A stretch of 61,739 nucleotides of DNA, counting the filler. It is 5 parts of 5 records of this genome, joined end to end, with 100 filler letters (N's around TTAATTAATTAA, not from the genome) between each part and the next. Parts side by side here need not be neighbours in the genome. Positions count along the whole stretch, not along the records: positions 7,917 to 28,280 come from SRR31156797_5758; 4 more parts are not named here. One strand, 5' to 3'. Positions 7,240-23,803 of the stretch are shown in pieces; position 1 is the stretch's first letter; each line of letters opens with the position of its first letter. The position numbers and the translations under genes are program-made. The notes beneath the pieces are model-generated. The model saw only the letters and a program-made list of their open reading frames with translations, ran no database searches and was not told the origin of the DNA.

Positions 7240-7815
7240 TTACCAAACTTTTATCTCATTATAGATTGAATCTCTTTCAACTGGTGTAAAGCCAGAGTTT
7301 TTGATTAAATCAACAAACTCTTCAAGTGGCATACCATTTGCACTTTTTGCTCCTGCTGCACTTTGAATAGACTCTTTTTCAATTGTTCCATCTAAATCAT
7401 TTGCACCAAACTCTTGAGCTAAAAGAGCTAGTTTTACAGTTGATGTTACCCAATAAGCTTTTATGTGAGGAATATTATCTAAAAGGATTCTAGCAATAGC
7501 CATAGTTTTTAATATCTCTTGACCAGTTAAAAAATCTTTTACTTTTAGATAGTTATTCTCTTTTTGATAAACAAGTGGAATGAAAGCATTAAATCCATTT
7601 GTTTCATCTTGTAAATCTCTAAGTCTTAGCATATGGTCGATTCTGTGTTCTCTTGATTCAACATGTCCAAATAGCATTGTTGCATTACTTTCATGTCCTG
7701 CTTTATGCCAAAGTTTATGAATATCAAGCCATTGTTGTGAAGTAACTTTTCCACCACAAATTCTTTTTCTAACCTTTTCATCAAAGATTTCAGCTCCACC
7801 ACCTGGCATTGAATC
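7240..7815 (-). CDS. mqnE: Aminofutalosine synthase MqnE (radical SAM), C-terminal part; 5' end lost at contig break
   Basis: DSMPGGGAEIF, NATMLFGHVE, LRDLQDET, HIKAYW, FGANDLDGTIEKESIQSAAGA and PVERDSIY motifs of the MqnE/MqnC family (futalosine menaquinone pathway). Confidence 0.82.
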   Translation of the reverse strand, partial: DSMPGGGAEIFDEKVRKRICGGKVTSQQWLDIHKLWHKAGHESNATMLFGHVESREHRIDHMLRLRDLQDETNGFNAFIPLVYQKENNYLKVKDFLTGQEILKTMAIARILLDNIPHIKAYWVTSTVKLALLAQEFGANDLDGTIEKESIQSAAGAKSANGMPLEEFVDLIKNSGFTPVERDSIYNEIKVW

Positions 7816-7816
7816 A

Positions 7817-7916
7817 NNNNNNNNNNNNNNNNNNNNNNNNNNNNNNNNNNNNNNNNNNNNTTAATTAATTAANNNNNNNNNNNNNNNNNNNNNNNNNNNN
7901 NNNNNNNNNNNNNNNN
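7817..7916. other. Artificial contig linker N44-TTAATTAATTAA-N44
   Basis: Seen directly. The 12-mer gives stops in all six frames, and genes on both sides are truncated. Confidence 0.99.
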
Positions 7917-7917
7917 G

Positions 7918-8304
7918 GATTTTACTGCAATCGAAAAAGAAGAAGCCAAAGCTTTAAAAGGTGGTTGGTTAAGAGATCAACAAAGTTGGTTTAATTTACT
8001 AGTTTATCATGGTTGGAGACCTACGCCAGATCAGCCAATCTCGTATTTAGGATCTTATTCAGCAAGTAAAACTTTTTATGCAGGAGTTAAAATTTATGAT
8101 CCTTATTCAGGGGTAGAAGAAATATGTCATATGGGAGATGTGGCTGGTTATATAAGCCCGAGTGCAGCAAGAAATTCGCATATTTTATGGGAAAAAGATT
8201 CTAATAGTAATACTTGGCGTAGTACAGCTTTAGGTGCTGATGCATATGCTGCAGGTGTTGCTGAAGGAACTACATTATATACCACAACAGGTAGTTGGAC
8301 TTAA
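7918..8304 (+). CDS. Double-glycine-leader precursor peptide/protein (5'-truncated; not in the supplied ORF track)
   Basis: Manual translation gives 128 open codons, DFTAIEKEEAKALKGG|WLRDQQSWFNLLVYHGWRPTPDQPISYLGSYSASKTFYAGVKIYDPYSGVEEICHMGDVAGYISPSAARNSHILWEKDSNSNTWRSTALGADAYAAGVAEGTTLYTTTGSWT, with TAA at 8302-8304. The leader matches the F/L-x-x-L/I-x-x-E-E-x-x-x-L-x-G-G pattern, and a C39 transporter lies 1.2 kb downstream. Confidence 0.85.
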   Translation, partial: DFTAIEKEEAKALKGGWLRDQQSWFNLLVYHGWRPTPDQPISYLGSYSASKTFYAGVKIYDPYSGVEEICHMGDVAGYISPSAARNSHILWEKDSNSNTWRSTALGADAYAAGVAEGTTLYTTTGSWT

Positions 8305-8314
8305 TAAACAAATG

Positions 8315-8337
8315 GTTCGGGGAATTATTCCCCGAAC
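8315..8337 (+). terminator. GC-rich stem-loop after the precursor gene (partial terminator or mRNA stabiliser)
   Basis: Perfect 10-bp stem GTTCGGGGAA-TTA-TTCCCCGAAC, with no real U-tract following. Confidence 0.65.
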
Positions 8338-8372
8338 GTTAAAATGCTATAGATACTAAAATACCTAATTTT

Positions 8373-9419
8373 ATGATGGAGAATGCCATTCGCCAAACGG
8401 CAGAAATTTTAAAAGCACAAATATTTAATTATTCAAACACAGGCTTGTTAAGTGGACAAATGGGGGCTAGTTTATTTTTATATTTTGCTTCCAGAATATT
8501 AGATGAAAAAAGATATGAAGATGTTGCCGATACATTAATAGATAATATATACGATAAAATTTCGGATGAGCAACAGCCTTATCATTTTGATGATGGTTTG
8601 TCCGGTATTGCCTGGGGATTTCATTACCTAAATAAAAATGGTTTTTTAGAAGGTGATTTAAACGAAGTACTAGAGGATTTGGATGATAAAATATACCATT
8701 ATATCACATTTAGTGAGAATATGGAAAATGCGGGTGTTCAAACTCTGGTAGGATTTGGATTTTATTTGATTGAAAGAATTAAATACTGCAATGAGTCATT
8801 CAAATCCGATCGTAAACTTTGTTTTGAACGTTTATTAATTTTTATTGTAAATAGGTTGTCTTTTTTATTAGAAAAAGATAAACGTATAATTCAGGAGTTA
8901 CATGGTTTTAGTTTGTTATATGGTTTGCCTTTGTGTATAGTATTTTTAGCTAGTGTTTATAGTCTTAATATATATAATCGAAAAATAGAAAGGACATTTG
9001 AGAATATTTCTTCTTCTGTTACCTCAATAATTCCAAATAGTAGTGCAAACAGGTTTTATTTGGTATTTGCCTTAAAATTTGCTTTACAAAATTATAAGCA
9101 GGATGATTGGAAGAAACACTGTGAACTATTAATAAATACAATTGATATTAATACAATTATTGAAGAGGACTTTTTGAATATTGAAATTCCCTTTTTAAAT
9201 GGTAAAGCAGGATTTGCTTTTTTATTAGATAAATATGCTGAATTATTTGAAGATGATCATCTTTCCTATGACCATGAGTTATTGGTCAATTCAATTATAC
9301 ATTCATCCTTTTGGGATATTAAACCTGATAAATTAAACATTAATACTTTAAATGTAGCAACTGGTATCGCAGGTATCGGTTTGGTATTATTAAAAACGAA
9401 ACAACCAGTTGCGTATTAG
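8373..9419 (+). CDS. Lanthionine synthetase C-like (LanC-like) alpha/alpha-toroid protein lacking canonical Zn-binding motifs
   Basis: Repeated GxxG helix-cap motifs GLLSGQMG, FDDGLSGIAW, FLNGKAG and VATGIAGIG. No WCxG, CHG or GxAHG motif. Confidence 0.72.
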   Translation: MMENAIRQTAEILKAQIFNYSNTGLLSGQMGASLFLYFASRILDEKRYEDVADTLIDNIYDKISDEQQPYHFDDGLSGIAWGFHYLNKNGFLEGDLNEVLEDLDDKIYHYITFSENMENAGVQTLVGFGFYLIERIKYCNESFKSDRKLCFERLLIFIVNRLSFLLEKDKRIIQELHGFSLLYGLPLCIVFLASVYSLNIYNRKIERTFENISSSVTSIIPNSSANRFYLVFALKFALQNYKQDDWKKHCELLINTIDINTIIEEDFLNIEIPFLNGKAGFAFLLDKYAELFEDDHLSYDHELLVNSIIHSSFWDIKPDKLNINTLNVATGIAGIGLVLLKTKQPVAY

Positions 9420-9515
9420 TATCACATTTTGGAGTATAAAAATTCTATCCATTTAATAAACCATCATTTCAAATAGTATGATTAACGGATGGTTGCAAAA
9501 AATTAAAAAAAGAAA

Positions 9516-11699
9516 GTGTTAAAAGATCGTTTAATTTTCCCTAGTTATATTCAGCACGATCAGATGGATTGTGGCCCTGCATGCTTAAAAATTATTGCCA
9601 AATACTATGGAAAAACCTTATCTATGAAGTATTTGCGTGATAGGTGTTATATCACGCGTGAAGGTGTTTCGTTATTTGATATTGGACAAGCTGCAGAAGT
9701 TGTTGGTTTTAGAACTCTGGCTCTAAAATTAAATTTTGAAGACTTGAGAGATAAAATGCCTTTGCCATTAGTCATCCATTGGAAAGAAAAGCATTTTGTT
9801 GTTGTATACAAGATTACGAGAAATAAGGTTTATGTTTCTGATCCAGCTTCAGGTTTGTTGATTTATACGCATGAGGAGTTTAAAAATGCCTGGTTATATG
9901 ATAATAATATTGGGGCTGCTTTGTTATTAGAAACAACTCCTGAGTTTGATAATATTACAGATAATGAAACAACTGCATCTTTGACATACTTTAGGCGGTA
10001 TCTGAAACCGTATCATAAGTATTTGTTTCAGGTTATTTTAGGGATGTTTGTTGGAATCCTGATTGGAGTTATAAGCCCTTTTATAAATCAATCTGTAGTT
10101 GATTTTGGAATAATGGGAGGTAATATGAGCTTTATTGAAGCTATGATGATAGCCGGTATTGTTCTGGCATTTAGTTCGTTAATCTCAGGGTTTATACAAA
10201 GTCGTTTAATGCTCTATGTTTCTGAAAGAATCAATATGAGTATGGTAAGTGATTTTGTTCGAAAAACACTAAAGTTACCCATTGCCTTTTTTGAACGGAA
10301 GACTGTGAGTGATTTGCTAACACGTATTGGAGATCATGGACGTATACAGTCGTTTGTAATGTCAACTTTTCTTGGCATCTTCATCAATGTACTGCTGTTA
10401 GTTATTTATACCGTGTTAATGTTGTACTATGAACCAACAATGTTTTATATATTTTTTGTTGGTAACTTAGTTTATTTTGGTTGGATACTGTTGTTTCTTA
10501 AAAGAAGAAAAAAGTTAGATAACATACTCTTTGAGTTAAGGACAACTAACCAAAATGCCATGCTTGAGATATATAATAGTGTTCAGGATATTAAGGCAAA
10601 TGGTATTGCAAACAGCAGAAGATGGCGTTGGGAGTTGAGTCGCTTTAAAATATATGGCTTACATGTTAAAAATATGGATCTGGATCAGATTGAGGCAGCA
10701 GGAGCTTCTTTAATCTTGAAGTTACAAGGTGTATTTTTAACATACATAGCCGCATATAATGTTATTGAAGGAAATATGACTTTAGGTATGATGACTGCAG
10801 CTCAATATATACTTGGTCAATTGTCAGGTCCTTTAAGCAGTATGATAGGGTACATCACATCTTATCAATTTGCCCAATTAAGTTTAAAGCGTGTAAATGA
10901 AGTAATTCATGAAGAAAAGCCGGAGGAATCAAAATCTTCGAATGATGTGCCAGAAAATAAGACCATAAAATTAAATGGTGTTAGCTTTCATTATAATCCC
11001 AATTTAGGAGATGTAATTAAAGATATTTCACTCACAATACCTCAAAATAAAGTTACAGCTATAGTAGGAGAAAGTGGAAGTGGCAAAACTACTTTAGTTA
11101 AGCTCTTAATGCGATTCTATGATCCTAATAATGGAGAGATAGAGGTAGGTAATATTGGTGTTGATAGTATAGATTTAGATAAATGGAGAAGGAGTTGTGG
11201 TGTAGTATTGCAAGATGGAAGATTATTTAATGAAACCATTATGTATAATATTACGCTTCAGGATGACGAGAAAGATATAGATACAGAACAACTCAAGAAG
11301 GCCATTATATTGGCTAACCTAACTGATTTTATTAACGAGCGACCACTGAAAGTGTATACGATGTTAGGTGAGAATGGATTAGGATTAAGTCAGGGGCAAA
11401 AGCAAAGAGTATTGATAGCTAGGGCTATATATAAAAACCCTGATTTTATATTTCTTGATGAAGCAACCAATTCCTTAGATGCCAATAATGAAAAAATAAT
11501 TTCAGAGAATCTAAATCAGATTATGGAAAATAAAACAGCTGTTGTTATTGCACACCGATTGTCTACAGTAAAAAATGCGGATAATATAGTTGTTATGGAA
11601 AAAGGTACAATTGCAGAACAAGGGACTCACGAGGAATTAATATCCAGAAAGGGAATGTATTACAAACTAGTGTTTAATCAACTGAATTTAGGAAATTAG
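9516..11699 (+). CDS. Peptidase C39-containing ABC transporter (PCAT, SunT/LanT-like)
   Basis: QHDQMDCGPACL (catalytic Cys), HWKEKHFVV (His), VSDPA (Asp), TM domain, Walker A GESGSGKTT, LSQGQKQR, FLDEAT and IAHRLST. GTG start. Confidence 0.96.
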   Translation: MLKDRLIFPSYIQHDQMDCGPACLKIIAKYYGKTLSMKYLRDRCYITREGVSLFDIGQAAEVVGFRTLALKLNFEDLRDKMPLPLVIHWKEKHFVVVYKITRNKVYVSDPASGLLIYTHEEFKNAWLYDNNIGAALLLETTPEFDNITDNETTASLTYFRRYLKPYHKYLFQVILGMFVGILIGVISPFINQSVVDFGIMGGNMSFIEAMMIAGIVLAFSSLISGFIQSRLMLYVSERINMSMVSDFVRKTLKLPIAFFERKTVSDLLTRIGDHGRIQSFVMSTFLGIFINVLLLVIYTVLMLYYEPTMFYIFFVGNLVYFGWILLFLKRRKKLDNILFELRTTNQNAMLEIYNSVQDIKANGIANSRRWRWELSRFKIYGLHVKNMDLDQIEAAGASLILKLQGVFLTYIAAYNVIEGNMTLGMMTAAQYILGQLSGPLSSMIGYITSYQFAQLSLKRVNEVIHEEKPEESKSSNDVPENKTIKLNGVSFHYNPNLGDVIKDISLTIPQNKVTAIVGESGSGKTTLVKLLMRFYDPNNGEIEVGNIGVDSIDLDKWRRSCGVVLQDGRLFNETIMYNITLQDDEKDIDTEQLKKAIILANLTDFINERPLKVYTMLGENGLGLSQGQKQRVLIARAIYKNPDFIFLDEATNSLDANNEKIISENLNQIMENKTAVVIAHRLSTVKNADNIVVMEKGTIAEQGTHEELISRKGMYYKLVFNQLNLGN

Positions 11700-11710
11700 A
11701 TTTTGATAAT

Positions 11711-13042
11711 ATGTTTGATGTTAGATTAAGAAGATCGTACGAAGAAACTATATATAATTATCGTCCGCCTTGGATTCATAGGTGGGGTAATACGTATGTA
11801 TTCATTTTTTTATTAATTGTGGTTGGTGGAAGTCATTTTGTAAGATATCCTGATGTAATTGCTGGGGAAGTAGAAATAACAACTATAAATCCTCCAGTCC
11901 ATCTAAAGGCTAAAGTATCAGGTAAAATACAAAAGTTATTGGTAAAAAATAATTCACAGGTAGTTACTAATACTCCGCTTGTGTTACTTGAGTCTTCTGT
12001 GAGCTGGGAGGATTTTTTAGAGGTTAAAAAAAATGCACAGGAATTATTATCGTACACTTTAACGGAAGGGAATAATGAGATTTTTGAACAAATGAATTTC
12101 TCGCGGCATTTGACGCTAGGTTCATTACAAGCAAGCTATGAAGACTTTATTGGAAGTTATTATGAATTGGCAGACTATTATTTTTATCAATTTAATCAAA
12201 AAGAAATTGTAGCTAAAGAGCAGCAGTTGAAAGATTTAAATGAGCTGACTGATATTTTAAATCAGCGTAAGCAAATTGTTGATGATCAATATGAAGTAGG
12301 TTTAAATCAGCTGTCAATGGATTCTCTCGATTATGAAGTGTCTGGCGTGTCGAAGTATTCATATTACGAGAAAAAATATAATTTACTGAATTCAAAAAGT
12401 AATGTTCTTGATGTCAATAAACAGGTTGCTACAAGTACCTCAACAATTTCACAACTTAAATTTGAAATACAGAGCCTTAGGGTAAAGGATGAGATTGAGA
12501 AAAAACGTTTGTGGATTAATTTTAAGCAAAAATTACAGATTCTCTATTCTAGAATAAATGAATGGGAAGATGATTATGTTTTATGTTCTCCTATTAAGGG
12601 AGTTGTAAATTATGCCTCTTTCTGGGCCGAGAATCAAAATGTTAATGCTGGTGAGATTGTGGTTTCTGTTTTACCAGATTCGCAAGCAGAAGTTAAAGCT
12701 CGGATTAGGTATCCAATACAGAAGTCAGGAAAAGTAAAAATGGGGCAGAAAGTGCATATTAAACTAGATAACTTTCCTTACAACGAATTTGGTTTACTGA
12801 GAGGTGTAATTGAAAATAAGTCAACCGTACCTAATACAATAGTTTCCGGAATTAGTGGTAATGTGATGATGTATAGTGCAGATGTATTGCTGGATAAGGG
12901 TTTGGTAACAAGTTATAAAGATACATTACCTGTAGTGCAGGAATTATATGGATCAGGAGAGATATTAACAGATGATATTAGTTTATTGATGCGCTTTTTT
13001 AGCCCTCTTAAAGCAGTATTTGAAGAAAAAATTGAAAAATAA
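11711..13042 (+). CDS. HlyD-family membrane fusion (periplasmic adaptor) protein
   Basis: PPWIHRWG plus TM, YPDVI.G, long coiled coil, SPIKGVV, GKVKMGQKVHIKLDNFPYNEFGLLRG. Directly follows the PCAT. Confidence 0.93.
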   Translation: MFDVRLRRSYEETIYNYRPPWIHRWGNTYVFIFLLIVVGGSHFVRYPDVIAGEVEITTINPPVHLKAKVSGKIQKLLVKNNSQVVTNTPLVLLESSVSWEDFLEVKKNAQELLSYTLTEGNNEIFEQMNFSRHLTLGSLQASYEDFIGSYYELADYYFYQFNQKEIVAKEQQLKDLNELTDILNQRKQIVDDQYEVGLNQLSMDSLDYEVSGVSKYSYYEKKYNLLNSKSNVLDVNKQVATSTSTISQLKFEIQSLRVKDEIEKKRLWINFKQKLQILYSRINEWEDDYVLCSPIKGVVNYASFWAENQNVNAGEIVVSVLPDSQAEVKARIRYPIQKSGKVKMGQKVHIKLDNFPYNEFGLLRGVIENKSTVPNTIVSGISGNVMMYSADVLLDKGLVTSYKDTLPVVQELYGSGEILTDDISLLMRFFSPLKAVFEEKIEK

Positions 13043-13048
13043 AATAAA

Positions 13049-13828
13049 ATGGAAAAGATAGATTTAAAAGATACAACTTTTATAATTCCAGTTAGGCTTG
13101 ACTCAATAAATAGACTTGAAAACCTAATGATGGTTGTGGATTTTTTAATTGAGAAATTTCATACAAATATAATCATATTAGAAGCTTCAACCTTTTGTAA
13201 TGGATTAGTTAAGCGTTTACTCCCTCAGACTGTTAATTATATGTTTTATGAAGATTTAGATCCTATTTTTCATCGAACATTTTATATCAATGAAATGATG
13301 AAGTCATGCCAAACTCCTTTTGTTGCGGTATGGGATTCGGATGTAATTCTTGGATCAAGGCAAATATTGGAATCAATCACTTTATTGAGAGAAAAAAAGT
13401 CTGATTTTGTTTATCCATATAAGGATAAGTTTCTTGATACCAGTAAAACAATTCGTGAATTATATTTTTTAAGCAGGAATTTTGAATTGTTAATAAAGCA
13501 TAGGAACAAAATGAATGAAATGTACCCGCCAAATCCTGTGGGAGGTGCTTTTATTGCCAATTGTGAATCATACATTAATTCAGGTCTTGAAAATACGGAT
13601 TATTATGGGTGGGGTCTCGAAGATGGTGAAAGGTATTATCGTTGGGATAATCTCGATTATAAAGTTATGCGTGTAGAAGGTCCTATGTTTCACTTATCAC
13701 ATGATCGTGGTATAAATAGTAGCATACATTCTTCAGATTCAGCCAAAATTAAAGAAAATGATATCACACGCACCAGGATGATGAATAAGAGTGAAATGGA
13801 AAAAGTTATTACAAATTGGAAAAAGTAA
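13049..13828 (+). CDS. GT-A fold glycosyltransferase (GT2 / galactosyltransferase Glyco_transf_7C-like)
   Basis: TFIIPVR, DxD motif (WDSD), GGAF, GWGLED acceptor/base motif and FHLSH. Confidence 0.85.
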   Translation: MEKIDLKDTTFIIPVRLDSINRLENLMMVVDFLIEKFHTNIIILEASTFCNGLVKRLLPQTVNYMFYEDLDPIFHRTFYINEMMKSCQTPFVAVWDSDVILGSRQILESITLLREKKSDFVYPYKDKFLDTSKTIRELYFLSRNFELLIKHRNKMNEMYPPNPVGGAFIANCESYINSGLENTDYYGWGLEDGERYYRWDNLDYKVMRVEGPMFHLSHDRGINSSIHSSDSAKIKENDITRTRMMNKSEMEKVITNWKK

Positions 13829-13848
13829 AGCCAAGAGATATTTGTTTT

Positions 13849-15342
13849 ATGCGTTTAGTGAGGAATTTAGGAAAATTTTTGTTGCTGCTAATAATGTTTG
13901 TTGGAGTACAGATTAAATTGTATTCGCAAGAATTAAAAAGTGAATATACTTTAGAAGAATTTATAAAATTAGCTGAAAAATTGTCTTTAGTAAGTATTGA
14001 AGCCAGGAATGAATATATTAGCAGTTGCTACACATATCAGGATTTCAAAACAGGTTATCTGCCATCAGTTTCGTTAAGTACAACAATTCCTAATTTCAAT
14101 CGGTCTATATCTTGGAATGATGATTTGCAGAGTTTTATAGAAAAAAATAATGTTTCCAGTACAGCTAATCTAAGTATGAGTCAAAAGGTGGCTCCAATGG
14201 GTGGAACACTGACAATGTCAAGTAATTTGCAACAAATCGTTTTGTTAGGAGATGATGGGAGTACCACTTACTTTTCTTCGCCATTAAGTTTGTCATATAG
14301 CCAGCCGATATTTGCTATAAATAGCATGAAATGGGAACGAAAAGTTTCTCCAATAGAGTTTGAGAAAGCAAAAAGAACTTATGTTTCATCTATTGAAGAT
14401 AACTCAGTAACTGCAATAAGGCGTTTCTTCTCATTTATCTCCAAGCAAAATACCTTGGATATGGCAAGGTTTAATTATAGTAATCTCGACACCTTATACC
14501 AGATGACGAAAGAGAGGTGTACTTATGGAGCTGTGTCAGAGATAGACTTATTGAAAATGCAAGAGTTGCTTTTAAATGCGAAGGAAAGGCTTATTAATGC
14601 AGAATTAAATTTTAAAAGTGAAAACAATTCAATGATGGATTTTCTTGGACTAAGTTCACATTTTTCATTTAAACTTATGGTTCCTGACAGGCCTAATGCT
14701 CCAGATGTAAATTTCGATGATGTATTAGAGAAAGCAATTCAATATAATCCAGGTTCATTAAGTCGCGAGTTAAATATTCTGAAAGCAAAAAAGGAATTAA
14801 TACAAGCCAAAAAAGAGAGATTTTCTATGGATCTAAGCATTACATATGGTTTAGACCATTCTTCAGCAAGTTCATTAGCTGCTTTATATGAACCGCCATA
14901 TTCAGACAGGCAACAGGTTTCGTTGGGGCTTTCTGTTCCTATAGTTAACTGGGGGCAGCAAAATAGAAAAGTAAAACTAGCTCAGGCAAAAGAAGAACTG
15001 GCTCAGGAAGTTTATGAAAGAGAAGAACGAAAGTTTGTACATGAGGTTGATATGCAGGTACAAAAATATAATGCTCATAAGTCAATCTTAGACTTGACTT
15101 CTTTATTGGATTCAATTGCAATTAAAAAATTTACAATGAGTAAAGAACGTTTTAAGATTGGAAAAATTAGTGTCAGAGAATTAAATGATGCACTAATCGA
15201 AAAAGACAATGCTAATGCTAGATATTTAACAAATCTAAAAAACTATTGGATTTATTTTTTTTCAATGAGACAGTTGACGCTATATGATTTTAATAAAGAC
15301 AGACCATTGTTAGAAGTTTATGAAGAGTATCTAAAGCCTTAA
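13849..15342 (+). CDS. TolC-family outer membrane efflux protein
   Basis: Signal peptide from ATG 13849 (the track's 13816 start is a TTG), YLPSVSL, LSYSQPIF, LSVPIVNWG, ERFKIGKIS and LTLYDF, typical of Bacteroidota TolC. Confidence 0.88.
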   Translation: MRLVRNLGKFLLLLIMFVGVQIKLYSQELKSEYTLEEFIKLAEKLSLVSIEARNEYISSCYTYQDFKTGYLPSVSLSTTIPNFNRSISWNDDLQSFIEKNNVSSTANLSMSQKVAPMGGTLTMSSNLQQIVLLGDDGSTTYFSSPLSLSYSQPIFAINSMKWERKVSPIEFEKAKRTYVSSIEDNSVTAIRRFFSFISKQNTLDMARFNYSNLDTLYQMTKERCTYGAVSEIDLLKMQELLLNAKERLINAELNFKSENNSMMDFLGLSSHFSFKLMVPDRPNAPDVNFDDVLEKAIQYNPGSLSRELNILKAKKELIQAKKERFSMDLSITYGLDHSSASSLAALYEPPYSDRQQVSLGLSVPIVNWGQQNRKVKLAQAKEELAQEVYEREERKFVHEVDMQVQKYNAHKSILDLTSLLDSIAIKKFTMSKERFKIGKISVRELNDALIEKDNANARYLTNLKNYWIYFFSMRQLTLYDFNKDRPLLEVYEEYLKP

Positions 15343-15353
15343 ATACACATGTT

Positions 15354-16889
15354 ATGAAATCAGCTTATTTAATACACGCAGATAAAAATCCCAAGCAGCT
15401 TATAAGATTGATAGAAACACTGGATTCAGACCAAAGTGTCTTTATAATTCATGTGAATGGTTTTACCAATTTAAAAGCTTTTAAAAGATGTTCGCAAAAT
15501 TTTCAAAAAGATAACATTCACTTTGTTGAATCCAGAATAGAGTACAAGGATGCAGGATTTCGAAAGGTGGAAGCAATCATGTTTTTAATAAAGTTTCTAT
15601 TTATAAATAATATAGAATTTGATTATGCTCATTTAATTAGTTCGGTAGATGTTCCTCTTGTAAATTCAAAGGAAATTCAAGAGTTTTTGTTAAATAATAA
15701 TGAGCAAAATTTCTTAGCCTGGCAAGAAGTAAAAGAGGGCGACCTGACAAGTGCAGGATTTGATAGAGTAAAGTATAAGTGGAACCTAAATAATCAGGAT
15801 AATTGTCGATATTCAGATTTAGAATATAAAAAATCTAATCAATTTTGGAATGAGGATTGTGTAATGCCAATATATACAGGTAGTATGTATTGGAGTCTTA
15901 ATTACAATTGCCTTAAGTTTCTATACAAAGAGTGTAATGAGAAGAATAAAATATATCGTTTTTTTAGATATGCATATAAGCCTGAAGAGATGCTCTTTCA
16001 TACAATGATTATGAATTCATCTTTTAGAGATAGTGTTGTAAATAATTCTCTTAGGGTTGAAAAAAAGAATAATAAAAAGGTTATATCTAAGGGTTTTTCT
16101 ATTGGAGACAAGCCTATGTTGTGGGCTAGCTCTATTGATCATATTCAGGATAATCATAATGGAAGAGTAAATACGGACTTATTTAAAGAACGAGTATCAT
16201 TAAAATCATCAAAAAATTGTGTGATTTCGCCTGTAGGAAAACAAAGTTTGCATAAAAATTGGATTGGTGAAGATGCAGATTATGATCTACATTTAATCGT
16301 TTACGATGATTCATTTGAAAATTATAAAGCAGATTCAAAATACGTTATAGAAGATAGGGGGTTTAAGTTTAAGCTTTTATACAGGTATTTGATAAAGAAT
16401 CAATGGATTTTAAAGAAATACGATTATTTCTATTTTCCAGATGATGATATTGATATTGATTTGAACAATGTGAATAAATTGTTTAAATATATGAAGGAAT
16501 ATAGTTTAGATATAGCACAACCAGCTGTTGCAAATTCCTATATTATTTTTCCAATAACTACCAGGGCATTGGACACCGTGTTACGATATACCAACTTTAT
16601 TGAAGTTATGCAACCATGTTTTTCGCTAGAAGCTTTAAAAAAAATATTGTTCACGTTTAACGCCAATAACAGTGGTTGGGGAATTGATTATCATTGGGGA
16701 AATCTGGTGGATTTTAGAAATTATAATATGGCTGTTATTGACGATGTGTACTCTGTTCATACAAGGCCTGTTTCGTCTAATCATGTTCAGGATCTAAAGG
16801 ATTATATAAAGCTGTATGACTTAAGTCTGGAAGTGTTTCAATTATCAAAAATTACAAAGGATAACCTAGCTTATGAAAACTTCAACTAA
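15354..16889 (+). CDS. Two-domain glycosyltransferase: GT14 (Core-2/I-branching)-like N-domain fused to DUF707-like GT-A domain
   Basis: N-part: AYLIHADKNPKQL, FIIHVN, LISSVDVPL, GSMYWSL, PEEMLFHT. C-part: YDYFYFPDDDI, DIAQPA, TNFIEVMQPCFS, GWGIDYHW. Confidence 0.75.
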   Translation: MKSAYLIHADKNPKQLIRLIETLDSDQSVFIIHVNGFTNLKAFKRCSQNFQKDNIHFVESRIEYKDAGFRKVEAIMFLIKFLFINNIEFDYAHLISSVDVPLVNSKEIQEFLLNNNEQNFLAWQEVKEGDLTSAGFDRVKYKWNLNNQDNCRYSDLEYKKSNQFWNEDCVMPIYTGSMYWSLNYNCLKFLYKECNEKNKIYRFFRYAYKPEEMLFHTMIMNSSFRDSVVNNSLRVEKKNNKKVISKGFSIGDKPMLWASSIDHIQDNHNGRVNTDLFKERVSLKSSKNCVISPVGKQSLHKNWIGEDADYDLHLIVYDDSFENYKADSKYVIEDRGFKFKLLYRYLIKNQWILKKYDYFYFPDDDIDIDLNNVNKLFKYMKEYSLDIAQPAVANSYIIFPITTRALDTVLRYTNFIEVMQPCFSLEALKKILFTFNANNSGWGIDYHWGNLVDFRNYNMAVIDDVYSVHTRPVSSNHVQDLKDYIKLYDLSLEVFQLSKITKDNLAYENFN

Positions 16890-18018
16890 AGAATATGATT
16901 ATTTAATAGTGGGTGCCGGTTTATTTGGGGCAGTGTTTGCTTATTTGCAATCTCAAAAAGGCAAGAAATGTCTGGTAATAGACAAACGAGATCATATCGG
17001 AGGAAATATATATTGTGAAGAAATAGAGGGAATAAATATGCATAAATATGGCCCTCATATTTTTCATACGGATAAAAAATACATTTGGGATTTTGTTAAT
17101 TCATTAGTAGAGTTTAATCATTTTAGATATACACCTTTAGCATACTATAAGGGTAAATACTATAATTTGCCTTTTAATATGCATACTTTCTACCAAATGT
17201 GGGGAACCGCAACTCCAATGGAGGCCAAGCAAATCATCAATGAGCAAGTAGAAAAATTTGGGTGTGAAGTACCTGGTAATTTAGAAGAACAGGCCTTAAG
17301 TTTAGTAGGAAAAGACCTGTATCAAAAACTGATAAAAGGTTATACCGAAAAACAATGGGGGATGGATGCTACGCAGGTTCCTGCTTTTATTATTAAACGT
17401 ATTCCCCTAAGATTTATTTACGACAATAATTATTTTAATGATCCATATCAGGGAATACCAATAGGAGGATACAATAAATTAATAAATAAGTTGTTGGATG
17501 GTATTGATGTTAGATTAAACGTTGAGTTCTTGGGAAATAAATCATATTTTGAATCTATTGCAGATAAGATTCTATATACAGGTTGTATAGATGAATTTTA
17601 CGGATTTACATATGGCCAATTAGATTACAGGAGCTTAAGGTTTGAAACAACATTGCACGAGTGTTCAAACTACCAGGGTAATGCGGCAGTAAATTATACA
17701 GATAGAGAAATACCTTATACTAGGATAATAGAACATAAGCATTTTGGGTTTGGGAATCAGGAAAATACAGTAATAACGAAAGAGTTTTCTACTGATTTTA
17801 CAAAAAAAGATAATGAACCCTTTTATCCAATTAATGATCATAAGAATAATGAAGTCTATAATAAATATAGGGCTCTTTCTGAACAGCAATCAAAATATAT
17901 TTTCGGAGGAAGATTAGGGAGTTATAAATACTTTGATATGGATGATACAATAGAGGCAGCTATGCAATTAGATATGGAATTGGAAAAAAATTTAACTAAG
18001 GAGATATGCAATCTATAG
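16873..18018 (+). CDS. glf: UDP-galactopyranose mutase
   Basis: YDYLIVGAGLFG, HIGGNIY, HKYGPHIFHT, GYTEKQWG, YFNDPYQGIP, TRIIEHKHF, EPFYPIND, GRLGSYKYFDMD. Confidence 0.97.
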   Translation: MKTSTKEYDYLIVGAGLFGAVFAYLQSQKGKKCLVIDKRDHIGGNIYCEEIEGINMHKYGPHIFHTDKKYIWDFVNSLVEFNHFRYTPLAYYKGKYYNLPFNMHTFYQMWGTATPMEAKQIINEQVEKFGCEVPGNLEEQALSLVGKDLYQKLIKGYTEKQWGMDATQVPAFIIKRIPLRFIYDNNYFNDPYQGIPIGGYNKLINKLLDGIDVRLNVEFLGNKSYFESIADKILYTGCIDEFYGFTYGQLDYRSLRFETTLHECSNYQGNAAVNYTDREIPYTRIIEHKHFGFGNQENTVITKEFSTDFTKKDNEPFYPINDHKNNEVYNKYRALSEQQSKYIFGGRLGSYKYFDMDDTIEAAMQLDMELEKNLTKEICNL

Positions 18019-18845
18019 TAACAGGAAAAGTAGAAAATAATAAAATGTTTCTGTTGACACCGAATCAGGGAGGGATCGAGTCTCGATGCGATAGCGTCAT
18101 GGCATTATTTACAGAGGCATTTAATAAAATTAAAGGAAGCTTTAATTTTAAAGATACTATGTTTTTTATCAACACCTGGGATGCATCTTTTAATATAAAT
18201 AATCAATTAACATTTGGTTTTACTCAAGGGGAGAATGTTGTTACATGTCCAGATTTTACTTTTGATAAATGGGTAGAAACCGGAATTGAGAATTTTGAAT
18301 CAGTTGTAGATAATATAATAAAGAGAGGAAAAGAGCCTTACTCCGTAAATAAATTATTTTGGATAGGTACTTTATCTACTCAGCAATTGAGATACAAATT
18401 GCATGATTTAGGGCAATTATATAAAGATGATTTTGAGATTATATCCATGGAATGGATAAAGGAACATGCTAAAGGCCATAAGCATAAGCAAACACAATAT
18501 GTTAGTTTACCTGATCATTGTAATTATAAGTATTTAATTGATTGTGGTGCAGGAGGCTGGAGTGCGCGACTAAAGTTTTTGTTGTTCACAAACAGACCTT
18601 TGTTTTTAGTAGAAAGAGATATCAATAAGCAAGATTATTTTTATCATCAACTTAAACCATATGTGCACTATATTCCACTTTGGCAAGATCTAAGTAACCT
18701 TAGGTCACAATATGAATGGGCTGAAAATAATTATGATAAAGCATGTGAGATAGCAAAAAATGCACAAAAGTTTGCCGTTGAAAATTTAAATAAAGAAGAA
18801 GCATTAATGTATTTGGCAAACCAAATGCTACTACAATTTACTTAA
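18006..18845 (+). CDS. Glycosyltransferase family 90 (CAP10/Rumi-like) protein
   Basis: CPDFTF..W, KLFWIG, YKYLIDCGAGGWSARLKFLL, YHQLKPYVHYIPL..DLSNL and EIAKNAQKFA form the CAP10/Glyco_transf_90 signature. Confidence 0.82.
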   Translation: MQSIVTGKVENNKMFLLTPNQGGIESRCDSVMALFTEAFNKIKGSFNFKDTMFFINTWDASFNINNQLTFGFTQGENVVTCPDFTFDKWVETGIENFESVVDNIIKRGKEPYSVNKLFWIGTLSTQQLRYKLHDLGQLYKDDFEIISMEWIKEHAKGHKHKQTQYVSLPDHCNYKYLIDCGAGGWSARLKFLLFTNRPLFLVERDINKQDYFYHQLKPYVHYIPLWQDLSNLRSQYEWAENNYDKACEIAKNAQKFAVENLNKEEALMYLANQMLLQFT

Positions 18846-18855
18846 AAAACGAATT

Positions 18856-19617
18856 ATGCAGGAAGTAAAACAAAAACAGGCTTTTTTATTATTAAGCAAT
18901 AATCCTTCAGATAAAATTATTTCGCTCTACAAAGATATTCAAGAGGCAACAAAGGGTATGGGCGATGCTTATTTTTTATTTCATTCTAACTTAGGTATTA
19001 TTCCAGATAAGATAAGTAAGCTAAACTATTTTTCGTTTTCAAATAAAGATTTATTTGATCTAAAGTACATTCCTTTAGAACCCAAGTTTATGCCAATTAG
19101 CTCCCATTTTCCTTTATTCTATTTTTACTTAAACCATAGAAATTATAGCCAATATTGGCTCATTGAAGATGATGTAAGGTTTAATGGAGATTGGTTCGAT
19201 TTCTTTAGTTCTTTTATTAATGATCAATCAGATTTTATTTCAAGTCATATAAAACATTTTTCAGAAAATAAACAATGGGATTGGTGGAATTCATTACGAC
19301 ATAGTAAAATAAATATTCCTCATGAAAGTAGAATTAGGTCTTTTAATCCAGTATGCAGGTGTTCAAATAAAGCGCTTCATTTACTTCATAATGAACTTCG
19401 AAATGGATGGATCGGACATCATGAAGTGCTGCTACCCACTTTGCTGAAGCAAAAAGGATTAAAGTTATTAGATATTAGTGGAGAAGGTGATTATAAAAAT
19501 ACAGATGTAAATATCAAGTTTTGTTCGGATGAAACCATGAGGTTCAGGCCTGCTTTTAAACAGGTCGGAGATGAACAAAATGTATTGTATCACCCTATTA
19601 AAGAATCTCTGGTTTGA
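18856..19617 (+). CDS. DUF3405-like putative glycosyltransferase
   Basis: YSQYWLIEDDVRFNGDW, WDWW, RSFNPVCRCS, GHHEVLLPTL and LYHPIK. The ExD motif suggests a GT-A-like fold. Confidence 0.55.
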   Translation: MQEVKQKQAFLLLSNNPSDKIISLYKDIQEATKGMGDAYFLFHSNLGIIPDKISKLNYFSFSNKDLFDLKYIPLEPKFMPISSHFPLFYFYLNHRNYSQYWLIEDDVRFNGDWFDFFSSFINDQSDFISSHIKHFSENKQWDWWNSLRHSKINIPHESRIRSFNPVCRCSNKALHLLHNELRNGWIGHHEVLLPTLLKQKGLKLLDISGEGDYKNTDVNIKFCSDETMRFRPAFKQVGDEQNVLYHPIKESLV

Positions 19618-19663
19618 TTATCTATTAATATTTTAAGAATACATGTAATCCTTTGTAATTTTC

Positions 19664-19671
19664 TATATTTG
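19664..19671 (+). promoter_or_regulatory. Bacteroidota -7 promoter element (TAnnTTTG) for yaaA
   Basis: TATATTTG lies 47 bp upstream of ATG 19718. Confidence 0.55.
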
Positions 19672-19717
19672 CTTGAATCCGAACAAAAGTTGTCTATTAC
19701 AGTTTATTCTTATAAAA

Positions 19718-20488
19718 ATGCAAATCGTAATTTCTCCGGCTAAGTCTCTCGATTTTGAGACTCCACATCAAATAAAAACACAAACATCTTATCGACTTGT
19801 TGAAGAATCAAAAGAACTAGTTAAAGAACTGAATAAGTTCAATGTCTCAGATTTAGAAAAGCTAATGAAAATTAGTACAAAACTTGCTGAGCTTAATTAT
19901 ATGCGTTTTAAGGAGTGGAAATATCCATTTGAACAAGAAGAAAGTAAGCAGGCTGTATTTGCATTTAAAGGCGATGTTTTTACAGGATTAGATGTGTATT
20001 CTTTATCAGAGAACGATGTGGATTATTTGCAAGATAAATTAAGAATTCTATCGGGTTTGTATGGTATACTTAGGCCTTTAGATATGATTTTACCTTATCG
20101 TTTAGAAATGGGAACTAAACTACCTCTTTTAAAAAATAATGGTTTGTACGGTTTTTGGGGTAGTAAAATTACAAACTTGTTAAAAAAGGACATGGAGGAA
20201 AATGGGCATAAAGTTCTGGTAAACCTGGCATCCAATGAATATTTTAAATCGATAAAGGTTAAAGAATTAAATGTGCCGGTAGTAACGCCTGTTTTTAAGG
20301 ATTTGAAAAACGGAGAATATAAGATGATCAGTTTTTATGCTAAAAAAGCACGTGGACTTATGACCAGATTTATTGTCCAAAATAAAATTAATAATCCAGA
20401 AGACTTAAAAGCTTTTGATTCTGAAGGCTATTATTATAACAATCAATTATCTAAGCAAAATCAGCCTGTTTTTACAAGAGATCATTAA
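19718..20488 (+). CDS. yaaA: Peroxide stress protein YaaA (UPF0246)
   Basis: MQIVISPAKSLD, LRILSGLYGILRPLD..PYRLEMG, NLASNEY and SFYAKKARG. ATG 19718 is preferred over the upstream TTG. Confidence 0.95.
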   Translation: MQIVISPAKSLDFETPHQIKTQTSYRLVEESKELVKELNKFNVSDLEKLMKISTKLAELNYMRFKEWKYPFEQEESKQAVFAFKGDVFTGLDVYSLSENDVDYLQDKLRILSGLYGILRPLDMILPYRLEMGTKLPLLKNNGLYGFWGSKITNLLKKDMEENGHKVLVNLASNEYFKSIKVKELNVPVVTPVFKDLKNGEYKMISFYAKKARGLMTRFIVQNKINNPEDLKAFDSEGYYYNNQLSKQNQPVFTRDH

Positions 20489-20620
20489 TACATAAAAGGT
20501 TAGCTAAAATATTTGCAGCCATAAAAATAATTGAAGACCTCGAGGTAGTTTATTGATTTATTAAAGAATTTTCGTAACTTATTTGATGCGATTATTAACC
20601 TAAATCAAAAATCTATTGTC

Positions 20621-21334
20621 ATGGCAGAAAATCATATTATAGAACGTTATGGTAATCTTTTGAAGGAAGAACAATTGGTTACTATGAATGATAAAATAAT
20701 GCCCAATACATTTGTGTTGGAGGCACGTGAACCTTTTCCTGGTTTTTTTAATTATTACAGTGACCGGCCTAATGAAACAACGCCACTGTATATATATTTA
20801 GTTGTTGATCAGTTGTACACGCTGGAGGAGGTTACCAGAGCTCGCCAGAATATTAAAAAATATTTCCCTTCTAATTTTCATGCTGATGCAGGGACAGTTA
20901 CTGTTTATAATAAAATGTATCATGTTATTAGAATTAGGCATCTGGAAAAATATGATCAGATTAAAGGTTTACAAACTGCATTTATGGACGAAGGAATTGT
21001 ATTTAAAAAGAAACCTGGGAAAAAGATTGAAGCACCCGGAATAATTCGACTTAAGAAGTTCTTTCATCTGAAAAATGTAGGAGAAGGTTTATATTTAGAT
21101 CAGGTAGAAGAAGATCATGGCTATATTGTTTTACCTCGTCATGTAAAATGGGCTGAATTTGAAGAACTAACCAGGAAGGCCAAGTATAATTGGGATGGAA
21201 ATATGTTTGATGCTGCCTTAGGTCACTTTCACCACAACTTTGATATTCAGGATATGATTAGAATTTATAATCCTAATATTGATTTAGATTTGTTGAAGAA
21301 TATTCAAAAAGTATACATGGAACAAATCAAATAA
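20621..21334 (+). CDS. Conserved hypothetical protein (Bacteroidota)
   Basis: 237-aa ORF with normal composition, followed by a terminator. No motif recognised. Confidence 0.75.
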   Translation: MAENHIIERYGNLLKEEQLVTMNDKIMPNTFVLEAREPFPGFFNYYSDRPNETTPLYIYLVVDQLYTLEEVTRARQNIKKYFPSNFHADAGTVTVYNKMYHVIRIRHLEKYDQIKGLQTAFMDEGIVFKKKPGKKIEAPGIIRLKKFFHLKNVGEGLYLDQVEEDHGYIVLPRHVKWAEFEELTRKAKYNWDGNMFDAALGHFHHNFDIQDMIRIYNPNIDLDLLKNIQKVYMEQIK

Positions 21335-21337
21335 ACG

Positions 21338-21359
21338 AAAGCTCCTTTTAGGAGCTTTT
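21338..21359 (+). terminator. Intrinsic terminator
   Basis: AAAGCTCCT-TTT-AGGAGCTTTT immediately after the stop at 21334. Confidence 0.75.
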
Positions 21360-21440
21360 GAACTACTTGGTCTAATAAGTTTTTTAAATTAATTAACATA
21401 TAAATGAACTATAATTGTCGGAATATTAAGAGGGAATAGT

Positions 21441-21448
21441 TAGGTTTG
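21441..21448 (+). promoter_or_regulatory. Bacteroidota -7 promoter element
   Basis: TAGGTTTG just upstream of the 5'-nucleotidase gene pair. Confidence 0.5.
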
Positions 21449-21468
21449 TACATGTAGTAATTTATAAT

Positions 21469-22236
21469 GTGAGCTTAATGAATTTACATAATTATTTTCT
21501 CGTATTCTTTTGTGTTTTGTTGTTCAGTTCCTGTCAGCAAAAATATAAAACCCAAGGCTATACTGGCCAAAATATTTCCATAGATAAGCAACTTCCTGTA
21601 GATTCAAGTATGGATTCTGTCATATACCCCTTCAAACATAAGATTGATGAACAGATGGACAGGATAATTGGTCACAGTACAATCGAATTACTTGCATATA
21701 AACCAGAGAGTCCTCTTTCAAACTTTGTGTCAGATGTTATTTACAGCAAAGCACAACGATATTTAAAAGACAATAAAGCAGATTCACTTTCATTAATAGC
21801 TTTAATGAACATTAAAGGAATTAGAGCACCAATTCCAAAAGGAGAAATTACTGTACGTAATATTTTTGAATTGATGCCCTTTGAAAATGAGCTTGTTATA
21901 TTAAAACTTTCTGGGGATAGCATTGTTTCCTTATTTAAAACCATAGCAACATCCGAAGGAGATGGAATTGCTGGAGCCAAGGTAGTTTATAGCAATTCGA
22001 ATATTAAAGGTATTTGGCTTAACAATAAACCATTGGATTTATCTAAAAACTACTATTTGGCTACTTCTGATTATTTAGCTAATGGAGGTGATAATTACAG
22101 TATGATATTAAATCCATTGCGAAGAGATAATGTAGGAATCCGATTGCGAGAGGCAATTATAGATTATATTGAAGAGCTTACAGCCAAAGGAAGAAAAGTG
22201 GAAGCTGAAATTGAGAATAGAATTGTGTTTAATTAG
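21469..22236 (+). CDS. 5'-nucleotidase C-terminal-domain lipoprotein
   Basis: Lipobox-like LLFSSC, PESPLSNFVSD, GIRAPIPKGEIT, MPFENEL and ATSDYLANGGD. The start may be ATG 21478. Confidence 0.88.
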   Translation: MSLMNLHNYFLVFFCVLLFSSCQQKYKTQGYTGQNISIDKQLPVDSSMDSVIYPFKHKIDEQMDRIIGHSTIELLAYKPESPLSNFVSDVIYSKAQRYLKDNKADSLSLIALMNIKGIRAPIPKGEITVRNIFELMPFENELVILKLSGDSIVSLFKTIATSEGDGIAGAKVVYSNSNIKGIWLNNKPLDLSKNYYLATSDYLANGGDNYSMILNPLRRDNVGIRLREAIIDYIEELTAKGRKVEAEIENRIVFN

Positions 22237-22248
22237 ACTAAGAGATCA

Positions 22249-23154: not shown

Positions 23155-23230
23155 TTATTGCCAATAAAGTAAAAAGTGTTTATAAAGAAGTAATCGTCCT
23201 ATCTTTGAAAATAAAATAAATAGATAAGAT

Positions 23231-23803
23231 ATGAAGATTCCGATAATAGATCTTACCCTTGAAAATCTGATTGAATTAAAAGAAAAACATGATTACAGTG
23301 AGCATTTTAAACTGGTAGTCTGGCCCAGAGCATTGGTTTGGTTAGGATTAAAGGAGCAGTTTAAAGAGTTTGATACCCTTCATTGGAAAATACATTATAC
23401 TCCGGAAAATATGCATAATAATATGATATCGATGCATATCGGAGATCCAGATGAACAAAAGTTTAATTTTTATTTCCAGATTCCTTTGGTTCAAAAACTT
23501 AGTTTTAATTTGTATCTGGGAGATAGCACCTATAACTTTTTTGAAATACATCCTTTGCTTATTGAAAAAGGCGTTATTAAAAAAGAGGAAATTCCTATTC
23601 AAGCTACTTCTACAATTTTACCACATCTTGTTTTATCTGACTCAAATAGTAAGTATCAAAAGGCTGTTTTGTGGAAAATAAATGAGGAGAATTACAAGGA
23701 ACAAGTTAAAAATGATCCTCTAATTAATTTGCTACTAATAAATTTTAAAAGATTTATACCTCCCTTACAGAATATTATTAATGGAGAATGGATGTTAGGC
23801 TAG
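23231..23803 (+). CDS. Hypothetical protein
   Basis: 190-aa ORF with its own TATCTTTG -7 element (23200-23207) and a downstream terminator. Confidence 0.7.
   Translation: MKIPIIDLTLENLIELKEKHDYSEHFKLVVWPRALVWLGLKEQFKEFDTLHWKIHYTPENMHNNMISMHIGDPDEQKFNFYFQIPLVQKLSFNLYLGDSTYNFFEIHPLLIEKGVIKKEEIPIQATSTILPHLVLSDSNSKYQKAVLWKINEENYKEQVKNDPLINLLLINFKRFIPPLQNIINGEWMLG

Follow-up and report, generated by a model that had tools for sequence, protein, structure and literature searches.

A zinc-less LanC-like protein, a glycosyltransferase set and a type I exporter around a double-glycine-leader mini-protein: a candidate peptide glycosylation island of a marine Bacteroidota strain

Which product is made by an operon that combines a leader-bearing precursor and a dedicated exporter with a LanC-like protein and a whole set of glycosyltransferases (GTs) is the question raised by a ten-gene locus in DNA of a Saccharicrinis-like marine Bacteroidota strain. 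The stretch analyzed (the window) comprises 61,739 nucleotides and consists of five joined contigs; the locus (7917-19617) lies on the contig spanning 7917-28280, which opens inside the precursor gene. All ten genes are encoded on the plus strand and either overlap or are spaced by 6-96 nt, with the GT genes interleaved with the exporter genes along the operon. This tight co-directional arrangement had been proposed in a first annotation made without database searches (the sequence-only reading) and is confirmed in its order by the positions of the open reading frames (ORFs) as well as by Pfam and NCBIfam matches. The locus is a real, coherent and rare island within the glycosylated double-glycine (GG)-leader peptide systems, and the evidence leans towards a precursor that would be glycosylated in the cytoplasm, cut after the GG motif and exported, hence a system resembling those of peptides made on the ribosome and modified after translation (RiPPs) but for a glycosylated mini-protein. 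The features encoded are as follows.

7918..8304, plus strand: GG-leader precursor gene, 5'-truncated (from translation).
8315..8337, plus strand: GC-rich stem-loop of 10 bp just 3' of the precursor stop codon (-17 kcal/mol, z -3.2).
8373..9419, plus strand: LanC-like protein without zinc ligands, a pseudo-cyclase (Pfam LANC_like 2.4e-11).
9516..11699, plus strand: C39 peptidase-containing ATP-binding cassette transporter (PCAT) with C39, transmembrane and nucleotide-binding domains (Pfam Peptidase_C39 4e-35, ABC_membrane, ABC_tran).
11711..13042, plus strand: HlyD-family membrane fusion protein (Pfam HlyD_3 1.2e-10; TIGR01843 2.3e-15).
13049..13828, plus strand: soluble 259-aa GT of the GT-A type, Glyco_transf_7C-like (Pfam 21.8 bits, cut-off 23).
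13849..15342, plus strand: TolC/OEP outer-membrane channel (Pfam OEP 1.4e-37).
15354..16889, plus strand: two-domain protein, GT14 (Branch) plus DUF707 (Pfam Branch 3.9e-12, DUF707 2.8e-11).
16873..18018, plus strand: UDP-galactopyranose mutase, Glf (Pfam GLF; NCBIfam equivalog TIGR00031, 409.9 bits, cut-off 303.75).
18006..18845, plus strand: GT90-family glycosyltransferase (Pfam Glyco_transf_90 5.3e-28).
18856..19617, plus strand: DUF3405-family protein, putatively GT-like (Pfam 23.2 bits, cut-off 25).
Directly after the ten-gene block: YaaA (Pfam), with the ATG at 19718 as the more likely start.

Cleavage after GG leaders by C39-PCATs and export together with HlyD and TolC proteins is an established general scheme, and the type I secretion set required for it, PCAT, membrane fusion protein and TolC-like channel, is complete in this one operon. 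The N-terminal sequence of the PCAT carries the catalytic cysteine motif DCGPACL. For the channel, the listed ORF starts at 13816, but the ATG at 13849 is likelier, with a signal-peptide-like hydrophobic N-terminus beginning there.

As the contig is cut inside the precursor gene, the sequence-only reading had cautioned that more precursors, a radical S-adenosylmethionine enzyme (rSAM) or a LanB might be missing upstream. The genome nearest to the source of the window, G001 (a single contig of 5.7 Mb, 99% complete), carries the locus as well, in an ungapped alignment of 15.7 kb in which 98.55% of the nucleotides are identical. There, three tandem precursor genes are found 5' of the LanC-like gene, followed further upstream by about 1.3 kb without notable ORFs, a DUF6266 gene and an rRNA operon. 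Hence, two extra precursors do exist, whereas neither an rSAM nor a LanB gene nor any other maturase gene is present in the G001 DNA upstream of the locus. The assembly break of the window is attributable to these tandem precursor repeats adjoining the rRNA operon. Also as proposed, a dehydratase is lacking, with none encoded in the contig, the G001 upstream DNA or the G001 genome, as judged for the last from a genome-wide search for LanB (PF04738) which did detect the positive control in G245 and in which LanM, LanKC and LanL were not included. The best G001 match to the TIGR04148 rSAM family scores 32 bits (cut-off 300), its gene being located elsewhere in the genome; at the locus itself, both the TIGR04148 rSAM and the TIGR04150 pseudo-rSAM are absent, the latter not having been searched genome-wide. 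In three genomes of the same genus, yaaA and four genes downstream of it are kept, while 0 of the ten cluster genes are present. The ten genes accordingly form a single variable island, strain-specific and about 11.7 kb in size, which is bordered by the rRNA operon and yaaA. One of these sister genomes retains the rRNA operon at a distance of 6.7 kb from yaaA, the intervening DNA encoding a Macro-domain protein and an uncharacterized one.

Going beyond the sequence-only reading, the LanC-like protein turned out to have lost its zinc site and to belong to a GT-paired subfamily. In an alignment with four canonical LanCs, the WCxG and CHG motifs are present in the latter and absent in the window protein as well as in three copies from G087, a complete genome of the same genus. 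Zinc ligands are missing in all 13 aligned members of the subfamily, including the window protein, while the four canonical LanCs retain them. The subfamily is defined here by a length of 330-365 aa, absence of zinc ligands, an abutting GT gene and location in a GG-peptide/PCAT cluster, and it is by sequence that the window protein is assigned to it. As zinc site and dehydratase are both lacking and no cysteine of the substrate is conserved, lanthionine formation is excluded at the window locus. A search of PDB sequences with the LanC-like protein alone gave nothing relevant.

A sister cluster of the locus is present in G087. This genome has no homologue of the precursor core and holds the only other full-length GT14-DUF707 fusion found (about 40% identical, 38-41%); a genome contig scan with the GT14-DUF707 alignment and narrow patterns returned only the two already known loci. 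The G087 cluster starts with a GG peptide, an rSAM (TIGR04148), a pseudo-rSAM (TIGR04150), a C39-like/VKOR/thioredoxin protein and a GG precursor whose Cys-rich core has 43 aa, continues with PCAT (46-50% identity), HlyD and TolC, and ends with three LanC-like genes, each of them directly 5' of a GT gene: LanC-like followed by the GT-A (50%), LanC-like followed by GT14-DUF707 and Glf (65%), and LanC-like followed by a Nucleotid_trans protein. Judging from gene order, the three GT-cassette genes shared with the window have stayed linked in G087 to the exporter and LanC-like genes, although the precursor at their center is unrelated. The sister cluster is also directly flanked by genes for IS21-, IS66- and DDE-type transposases (G087, L020 2426-7699), and such flanks are consistent with mobility of clusters of this kind.

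Of the order's 401 sampled genomes, 46 gave a match to the zinc-less LanC-like profile. The loci studied were the best-scoring ones of 11 further genomes (17 stretches), a sample that is neither random nor free of dependence between related genomes. A zinc-less LanC-like gene lies immediately next to a GT gene in 8 of them, the stop codon of one often overlapping the start codon of the other; for the remaining G213, G287 and G464, coverage was limited to a tblastn screen with the proteins of the window. The abutting GT is a 7C-like GT-A in six genomes and otherwise a GT2, GT4, GT32-like or Branch+GT2 protein. A PCAT is encoded in the fetched stretch in 10 of the 11 genomes, and candidate GG-leader peptides of 57-98 aa, mostly Cys-rich, are found nearby. 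In G302, LanM (L054 17364-19955 with L055 325-525) and in G245, LanB together with a canonical LanC (L060 12795-16192) are encoded in addition to zinc-less LanC-like/GT pairs, so that the zinc-less copy is not simply the cyclase of the cluster; this suggests that the G302 and G245 clusters make glycosylated lanthipeptides. By gene order, this unexpected pairing of pseudo-LanC and GT generalizes across the order.

Two further protein types recur in the related loci. A protein of about 520-550 aa combining a C39-like N-terminal domain with VKOR and thioredoxin domains is found in related GG-peptide clusters (L021 3236-4885 in G087, L056 6719-8293, L058 10474-12120, L062 12637-14259 and L065 9076-10632) and is presumably a leader-guided disulfide-forming enzyme for Cys-rich cores; it is absent from the window locus, whose core has no conserved cysteine. 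Fusions of Branch (GT14) and GT2 domains of about 585-594 aa (L065 2598-4367, L066 3720-5468, L070 8174-9955 and 15648-17414) adjoin genes for GG-leader precursors, rSAM/pseudo-rSAM, GT4 and DUF5128 propeller proteins in two other genomes, so GT14-type enzymes in peptide clusters are not unique to the island.

The 259-aa GT-A is proposed as the priming peptide glycosyltransferase. Its Pfam assignment is below the cut-off, but homologues score 26-32 bits versus Glyco_transf_7C, and DxD and HxxH-type His residues are invariant in the family. The AlphaFold2 (AF2) model (predicted local distance difference test score, pLDDT, 91.4; predicted template modelling score, pTM, 0.90) shows the GT-A fold according to Foldseek, with the chondroitin polymerase K4CP (1.3e-10), WrtF, polypeptide GalNAc-transferases and b4GalT1 as neighbors, similarity being at the generic GT-A level. 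By sequence, b4GalT7 is the solved protein closest to it (8.5e-7, about 60 residues aligned), and a profile search of PDB sequences returned, at E <= 1, GT7 enzymes only and no SunS-type chain; likewise, no glycocin GT is among the best 50 of at least 500 Foldseek matches. The protein covers 259 aa in full without any extra domain. Similarly, the other sub-threshold Pfam call, the DUF3405-like protein, is backed by the ESM Atlas, in which it matches bacterial DUF3405 clusters at 0.99, one of them also with DUF707. BLASTP revealed no similarity of this protein to either the DUF707 domain or the Nucleotid_trans protein of G087. None of the GT-like proteins has a segment resembling a transmembrane helix (maximal 19-residue hydropathy 0.67-1.52), hence all are soluble.

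Were these GT genes to occur mostly apart from peptide and exporter genes, for example, in polysaccharide loci, the glycopeptide proposal of the sequence-only reading would lose its basis. This is not what was found. The second GT14-DUF707 gene belongs to the G087 cluster, GT90 is present in 1 of the 401 genomes of the order, G001 only, and of the 13 genomes among the 401 that match the GT-A profile, all 9 with E <= 1e-45 have the gene in a cluster for peptide maturation or export; 7 of these 9 belonged to the profile model and thus match by construction. Newly retrieved were G262, where the GT-A is encoded near a C39 protein, an rSAM-SPASM protein and several GTs, and G484, where it is near PCAT, HlyD, DUF5128 and GT genes. 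At the level of gene neighborhoods, comparative support for a link between GTs and peptides is accordingly good.

The LanC-like protein is proposed as a non-catalytic partner of the glycosyltransferase. Complex prediction for the LanC-like protein and the GT-A gave a score of 0.52, compared to 0.12 for the best of three controls, with partner pLDDT values of at least 86 and runs agreeing in 100% of contacts. In calibration, 51 of 78 solved complexes attained the mark, compared to 2 of 108 mismatched pairs; among scores of up to 0.60, only 5 of the 78 solved complexes reach it, as do all 4 passing mismatches. The predicted complex may therefore be taken as a modest and rather weak addition to the gene-order evidence.

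In the window, the precursor retains the last 16 residues of its leader, ending with ALKGG, followed by a 112-aa core with tryptophan in first position and one cysteine, as translation confirms for the precursor described in the sequence-only reading. The G001 relatives are 140-141 aa at full length with nearly identical leaders, and every one of the three genes is followed by a GC-rich hairpin. Residues 1-30 of a G001 paralogue match the leader family TIGR04149 (28 bits versus a cut-off of 25), whereas the truncated precursor of the window does not. Serine and threonine make up about 21-26% of the core in the four copies from the window and G001 and about 19-20% in two metagenomic homologues. 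Across these six core homologues, four serine residues are invariant, while cysteines number 0-1 per core and none is conserved. The 112-aa core is almost an orphan. It is encoded in 1 of 133 genomes of the GTDB family, namely G001, a word-index search retrieved 5 homologous proteins and an exhaustive hidden Markov model search of 1.84 billion representatives gave 9 precursor matches at E <= 1e-3 (86-140 aa in total length), only four of which are similar to most of the core, the other 5 sharing just the leader or the first 60-90 residues or so, joined to different cores; a metagenome scan with the precursor profile revealed no relative. For the G001 paralogue, AF2 on the six-sequence alignment predicts a compact alpha/beta domain (pTM 0.69; pLDDT of the core 83-92 per 10-residue block over residues 31-120). 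Searches for fold neighbors of the core found none at E <= 0.001 with Foldseek against the PDB, a best Z of 4.0 with VIA wide and no usable match in the Atlas, which does not establish a new fold.

Precursor and machinery differ in their divergence between the window and G001. While synonymous divergence (dS) of the machinery genes is 0.02-0.11, the precursor shows a dS of 0.70, a nonsynonymous divergence (dN) of 0.21 and 72% amino-acid identity to its counterpart, with a break in identity near 8280. This pattern is indicative of allele or cassette replacement, not of divergence in place. Because of the tandem divergent paralogues, the swapping of alleles and the patchy distribution, an antagonistic or other strain-specific extracellular factor, or one serving strain recognition, is favored as the product.

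The following route would connect these results. One or more precursors would be made, each consisting of a Bacteroidota-type GG leader and, behind it, about 112 aa of Ser/Thr-rich core with a predicted fold. The 259-aa GT-A would add the first sugar to the core in the cytoplasm, assisted by the zinc-less LanC-like protein, which, having lost cyclase chemistry, may act as a binding partner of the substrate or of the GT. Soluble GT14-DUF707, GT90 and DUF3405 proteins would lengthen the glycan, with Glf providing UDP-galactofuranose (Galf). Finally, the C39 domain of the PCAT would cleave after GG, and PCAT, HlyD and TolC would move the product across both membranes. The sequences themselves establish the gene content, the missing zinc ligands, the linkage kept across genomes, the island character and the exchange of precursor alleles, whereas the LanC-like protein as an adaptor, the succession of the GTs, incorporation of Galf and the biology of the product are what we infer. 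A more far-reaching version of the scheme is possible, though less likely than not: zinc-less LanC-like proteins might constitute an unrecognized class of RiPP adaptors recruiting several GT families to GG-leader precursors, with the sugar being extended by GT14, GT90, DUF707 and DUF3405 proteins, types typical of eukaryotes, into a Galf-containing oligosaccharide on a folded 112-aa protein. If this were true, the product would be the first multi-sugar 'glyco-RiPP protein' leaving a Gram-negative cell via a PCAT type I system.

Several points weigh against a glycosylated, exported mini-protein. Glycosylation of the core and every chemical step of the route are what we infer from the genes, and enzyme activity of the DUF707 and DUF3405 proteins is putative and unproven. 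In the window itself, the LanC-like gene is separated from the GT-A gene by PCAT and HlyD, and the complex score falls in a range where passes are mostly wrong unless the guess was likely beforehand. The genome sample underlying the pairing was selected by score, as stated above. With 112 aa, a predicted fold and no conserved cysteine, the core is far larger than that of any known glycocin, and export of a folded cargo of this size by a PCAT is plausible but hypothetical. No immunity gene is evident in the Pfam scan of the locus. Distant GT-A homologues occur in housekeeping (G140), mobile-element (G230) and polysaccharide (G430) contexts, and the thirteenth profile match, a pseudogene fragment in G347, was left out of the context survey. 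Moreover, longer GT-A fusions (10 proteins listed) carry GT4, GT11, methyl- or sulfotransferase domains and never LANC_like; the N-terminal domain of the fusion in G324 is unrelated to the LanC-like protein (hhalign probability 0.1%), and the 184-aa N-terminal extension of the G262 GT matches the conserved N-terminal part of the LanC-like proteins weakly (probability 54%, E 1.3e-4), giving a hint only.

Some of these observations would also fit two functions encoded in one operon, an explanation which we consider unlikely but the most serious of the alternatives. Then, the exporter would secrete an unmodified class-II-like bacteriocin or signalling protein, GTs and Glf would modify the cell's own envelope for self-protection or another surface glycoconjugate, and the LanC-like protein would serve in immunity or as a chaperone. 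Envelope remodelling could provide the immunity for which no gene is visible, GT-A fusions with GT4, GT11, methyl- and sulfotransferase domains fit a non-peptide acceptor, distant GT-A homologues reside in polysaccharide or unrelated contexts, and stand-alone GT14 homologues (22-29% identity) are found in 11 other genomes of the family. However, the Pfam scan of 7918-23800 matched no family of flippases, polymerases, initiating phosphoglycosyl transferases or glycan ABC exporters, in agreement with the sequence-only reading, in which the first three had not been seen. The GTs are all soluble and their genes interleaved with those of the exporter, the same GT set occurs with PCAT and LanC-like proteins around a different precursor in G087, and LanC-like/GT pairs are coupled gene by gene in many GG-peptide clusters. 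A second alternative keeps the same chemistry, several GTs acting on one secreted protein, and makes the product non-antagonistic, that is, an adhesin-like, matrix or signalling glycoprotein. The predicted compact alpha/beta core, lack of similarity to known bacteriocins in the Foldseek, VIA and Atlas searches and lack of an evident immunity gene speak for it, whereas tandem divergent paralogues, allele replacement, occurrence in only 1 of 133 family genomes and the PCAT are hallmarks of bacteriocin-like loci and make such a product improbable. Lastly, a known RiPP class, either a class I lanthipeptide or a TIGR04148/TIGR04150 rSAM peptide with its maturase on the missing upstream DNA, could be imagined from the truncated contig, the TIGR04149-type leader and the rSAM/pseudo-rSAM, LanB/LanC or LanM genes of relatives elsewhere, but is very hard to uphold given upstream DNA in G001 without maturase, no PF04738 match and no TIGR04148 match above cut-off, a LanC-like protein without zinc ligands and 0-1 unconserved cysteines in the core. 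Both the lanthipeptide and the rSAM-RiPP readings were rejected, with no LanB, zinc site or TIGR04148/TIGR04150 protein at the locus.

The glycosylated mini-protein can be compared with three known systems. Glycocins, such as sublancin (SunA-SunS-SunT) and glycocin F, possess a helix-loop-helix core of about 40 aa with nested disulfides, which carries its sugar on Ser, Thr or Cys and is modified by a SunS-type GT2, an S-/O-glycosyltransferase that has helical peptide-binding domains of its own. Shared with them are the ribosomal GG-leader precursor, cleavage and export by a C39-PCAT and, as proposed for the locus, a dedicated cytoplasmic GT; in addition, VKOR-thioredoxin proteins are encoded in relatives of the locus, as are Cys-rich cores with lengths of about 40-70 aa. 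Unlike glycocins, however, the locus specifies a core of 112 aa that has a predicted fold and is essentially free of cysteine, falling outside the glycocin core type, a stand-alone 259-aa GT-A with GT7 enzymes as nearest solved sequence relatives, and four further GT-like domains plus Glf, suggesting an oligosaccharide over a single sugar. Likewise different are the zinc-less LanC-like partner, the Gram-negative host and HlyD and TolC being encoded in the cluster. With class I lanthipeptide systems (LanA/LanB/LanC/LanT), the locus has in common a LANC_like protein near a GG-leader precursor and a PCAT, but there is no LanB at the locus or in G001, and zinc ligands as well as conserved core cysteines are missing. 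The view of the sequence-only reading that the locus fits neither the glycocin nor the lanthipeptide class thus holds with respect to core size and disulfides, LanB and the zinc site. In the third system, serine-rich-repeat adhesins are glycosylated in the cytoplasm by GtfA with its non-catalytic partner GtfB and by further GTs before export via the accessory Sec pathway. This resembles the proposed route in outline, with soluble GTs acting stepwise on a Ser/Thr-rich protein, a non-catalytic partner and a dedicated exporter. Protein families, exporter (accessory Sec versus type I/PCAT) and substrate architecture are unrelated.

Regarding earlier descriptions, glycocins are covered by PMC12457901 and PMC12139839, and related Bacteroides clusters and GG leaders in Bacteroidetes are mentioned in PMC4573289 and PMC7268733. 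Closest to the present locus are Bacteroidales GG-peptide clusters reported in silico in 2023 (PMC10352776), among them clusters of gut Bacteroides and Parabacteroides. They encode rSAM/pseudo-rSAM enzymes and LanC-like proteins without zinc motif but no LanB, GTs are present in some, and no role is assigned to the LanC-like proteins there. The biosynthetic gene clusters BGC3-5 described there share with the locus the TIGR04149-type GG leaders, export by PCAT, membrane fusion and outer-membrane proteins, LanC-like proteins without the C...CH zinc motif, absence of LanB and, in some clusters, glycosyltransferases or other carbohydrate-active enzymes, but carry rSAM/pseudo-rSAM maturases lacking in the window. 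As far as covered here, that paper does not describe the gene-by-gene LanC-like/GT pairing, the GT14-DUF707/GT90/DUF3405/Glf set or the folded 112-aa core. The sequence-only reading, partly supported overall, came through both tests that could be computed, GT genes apart from peptide genes and upstream genes of a known RiPP class, and yet the system is not wholly new. In the open literature (subscription journals not covered), neither LanC-like/GT pairs nor glycosylation of Bacteroidota GG peptides were found to have been studied experimentally. If true, peptide glycosylation of the RiPP type, known as single sugars on glycocins of about 40 aa, would be widened to include a folded mini-protein bearing oligosaccharides, a function would be provided for many LanC-like genes of Bacteroidales that lack both LanB and zinc ligands, and GT14, GT90, DUF707 and DUF3405 proteins would be assigned bacterial substrates. 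A compact toolkit for cytoplasmic glyco-engineering, consisting of a leader-guided GT set and an exporter, would also become available.

At the 3' border of the island, yaaA had been credited with its own promoter element. A TAnnTTTG-type element, a candidate promoter motif, is indeed located at 19664-19671, 5' of yaaA, whose start is more likely at 19718, and an element of the same type lies about 75 nt 5' of the first G001 precursor. A scan for sigma-70 promoters gave 59 sites versus 69.5 in shuffled sequences, the sigma-70 model being ill-suited to Bacteroidota. At the opposite border, the DUF6266 gene of G001 (L005 14840-15478, 1.5e-18) between the rRNA operon and the precursor array has no tblastn match in the yaaA-region stretches of the three sister genomes. 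Within the window, the contigs are connected by four linkers of the type N(44)-TTAATTAATTAA-N(44) (7817-7916, 28281-28380, 41823-41922 and 56226-56325) with stop codons in all six frames, and because of this concatenation gene neighborhoods are not readable across the linkers. The contigs may stem from several organisms, as they would in a bin of mixed origin, since the first contig (1-7816) has no near-identical match in G001, showing 67-73% identity over stretches of about 100-230 nt, while that of the ten-gene locus is 98.55% identical. This first contig has a GC content of 22-31%, and a gene on its minus strand (7240-7809) is interrupted by the contig end.

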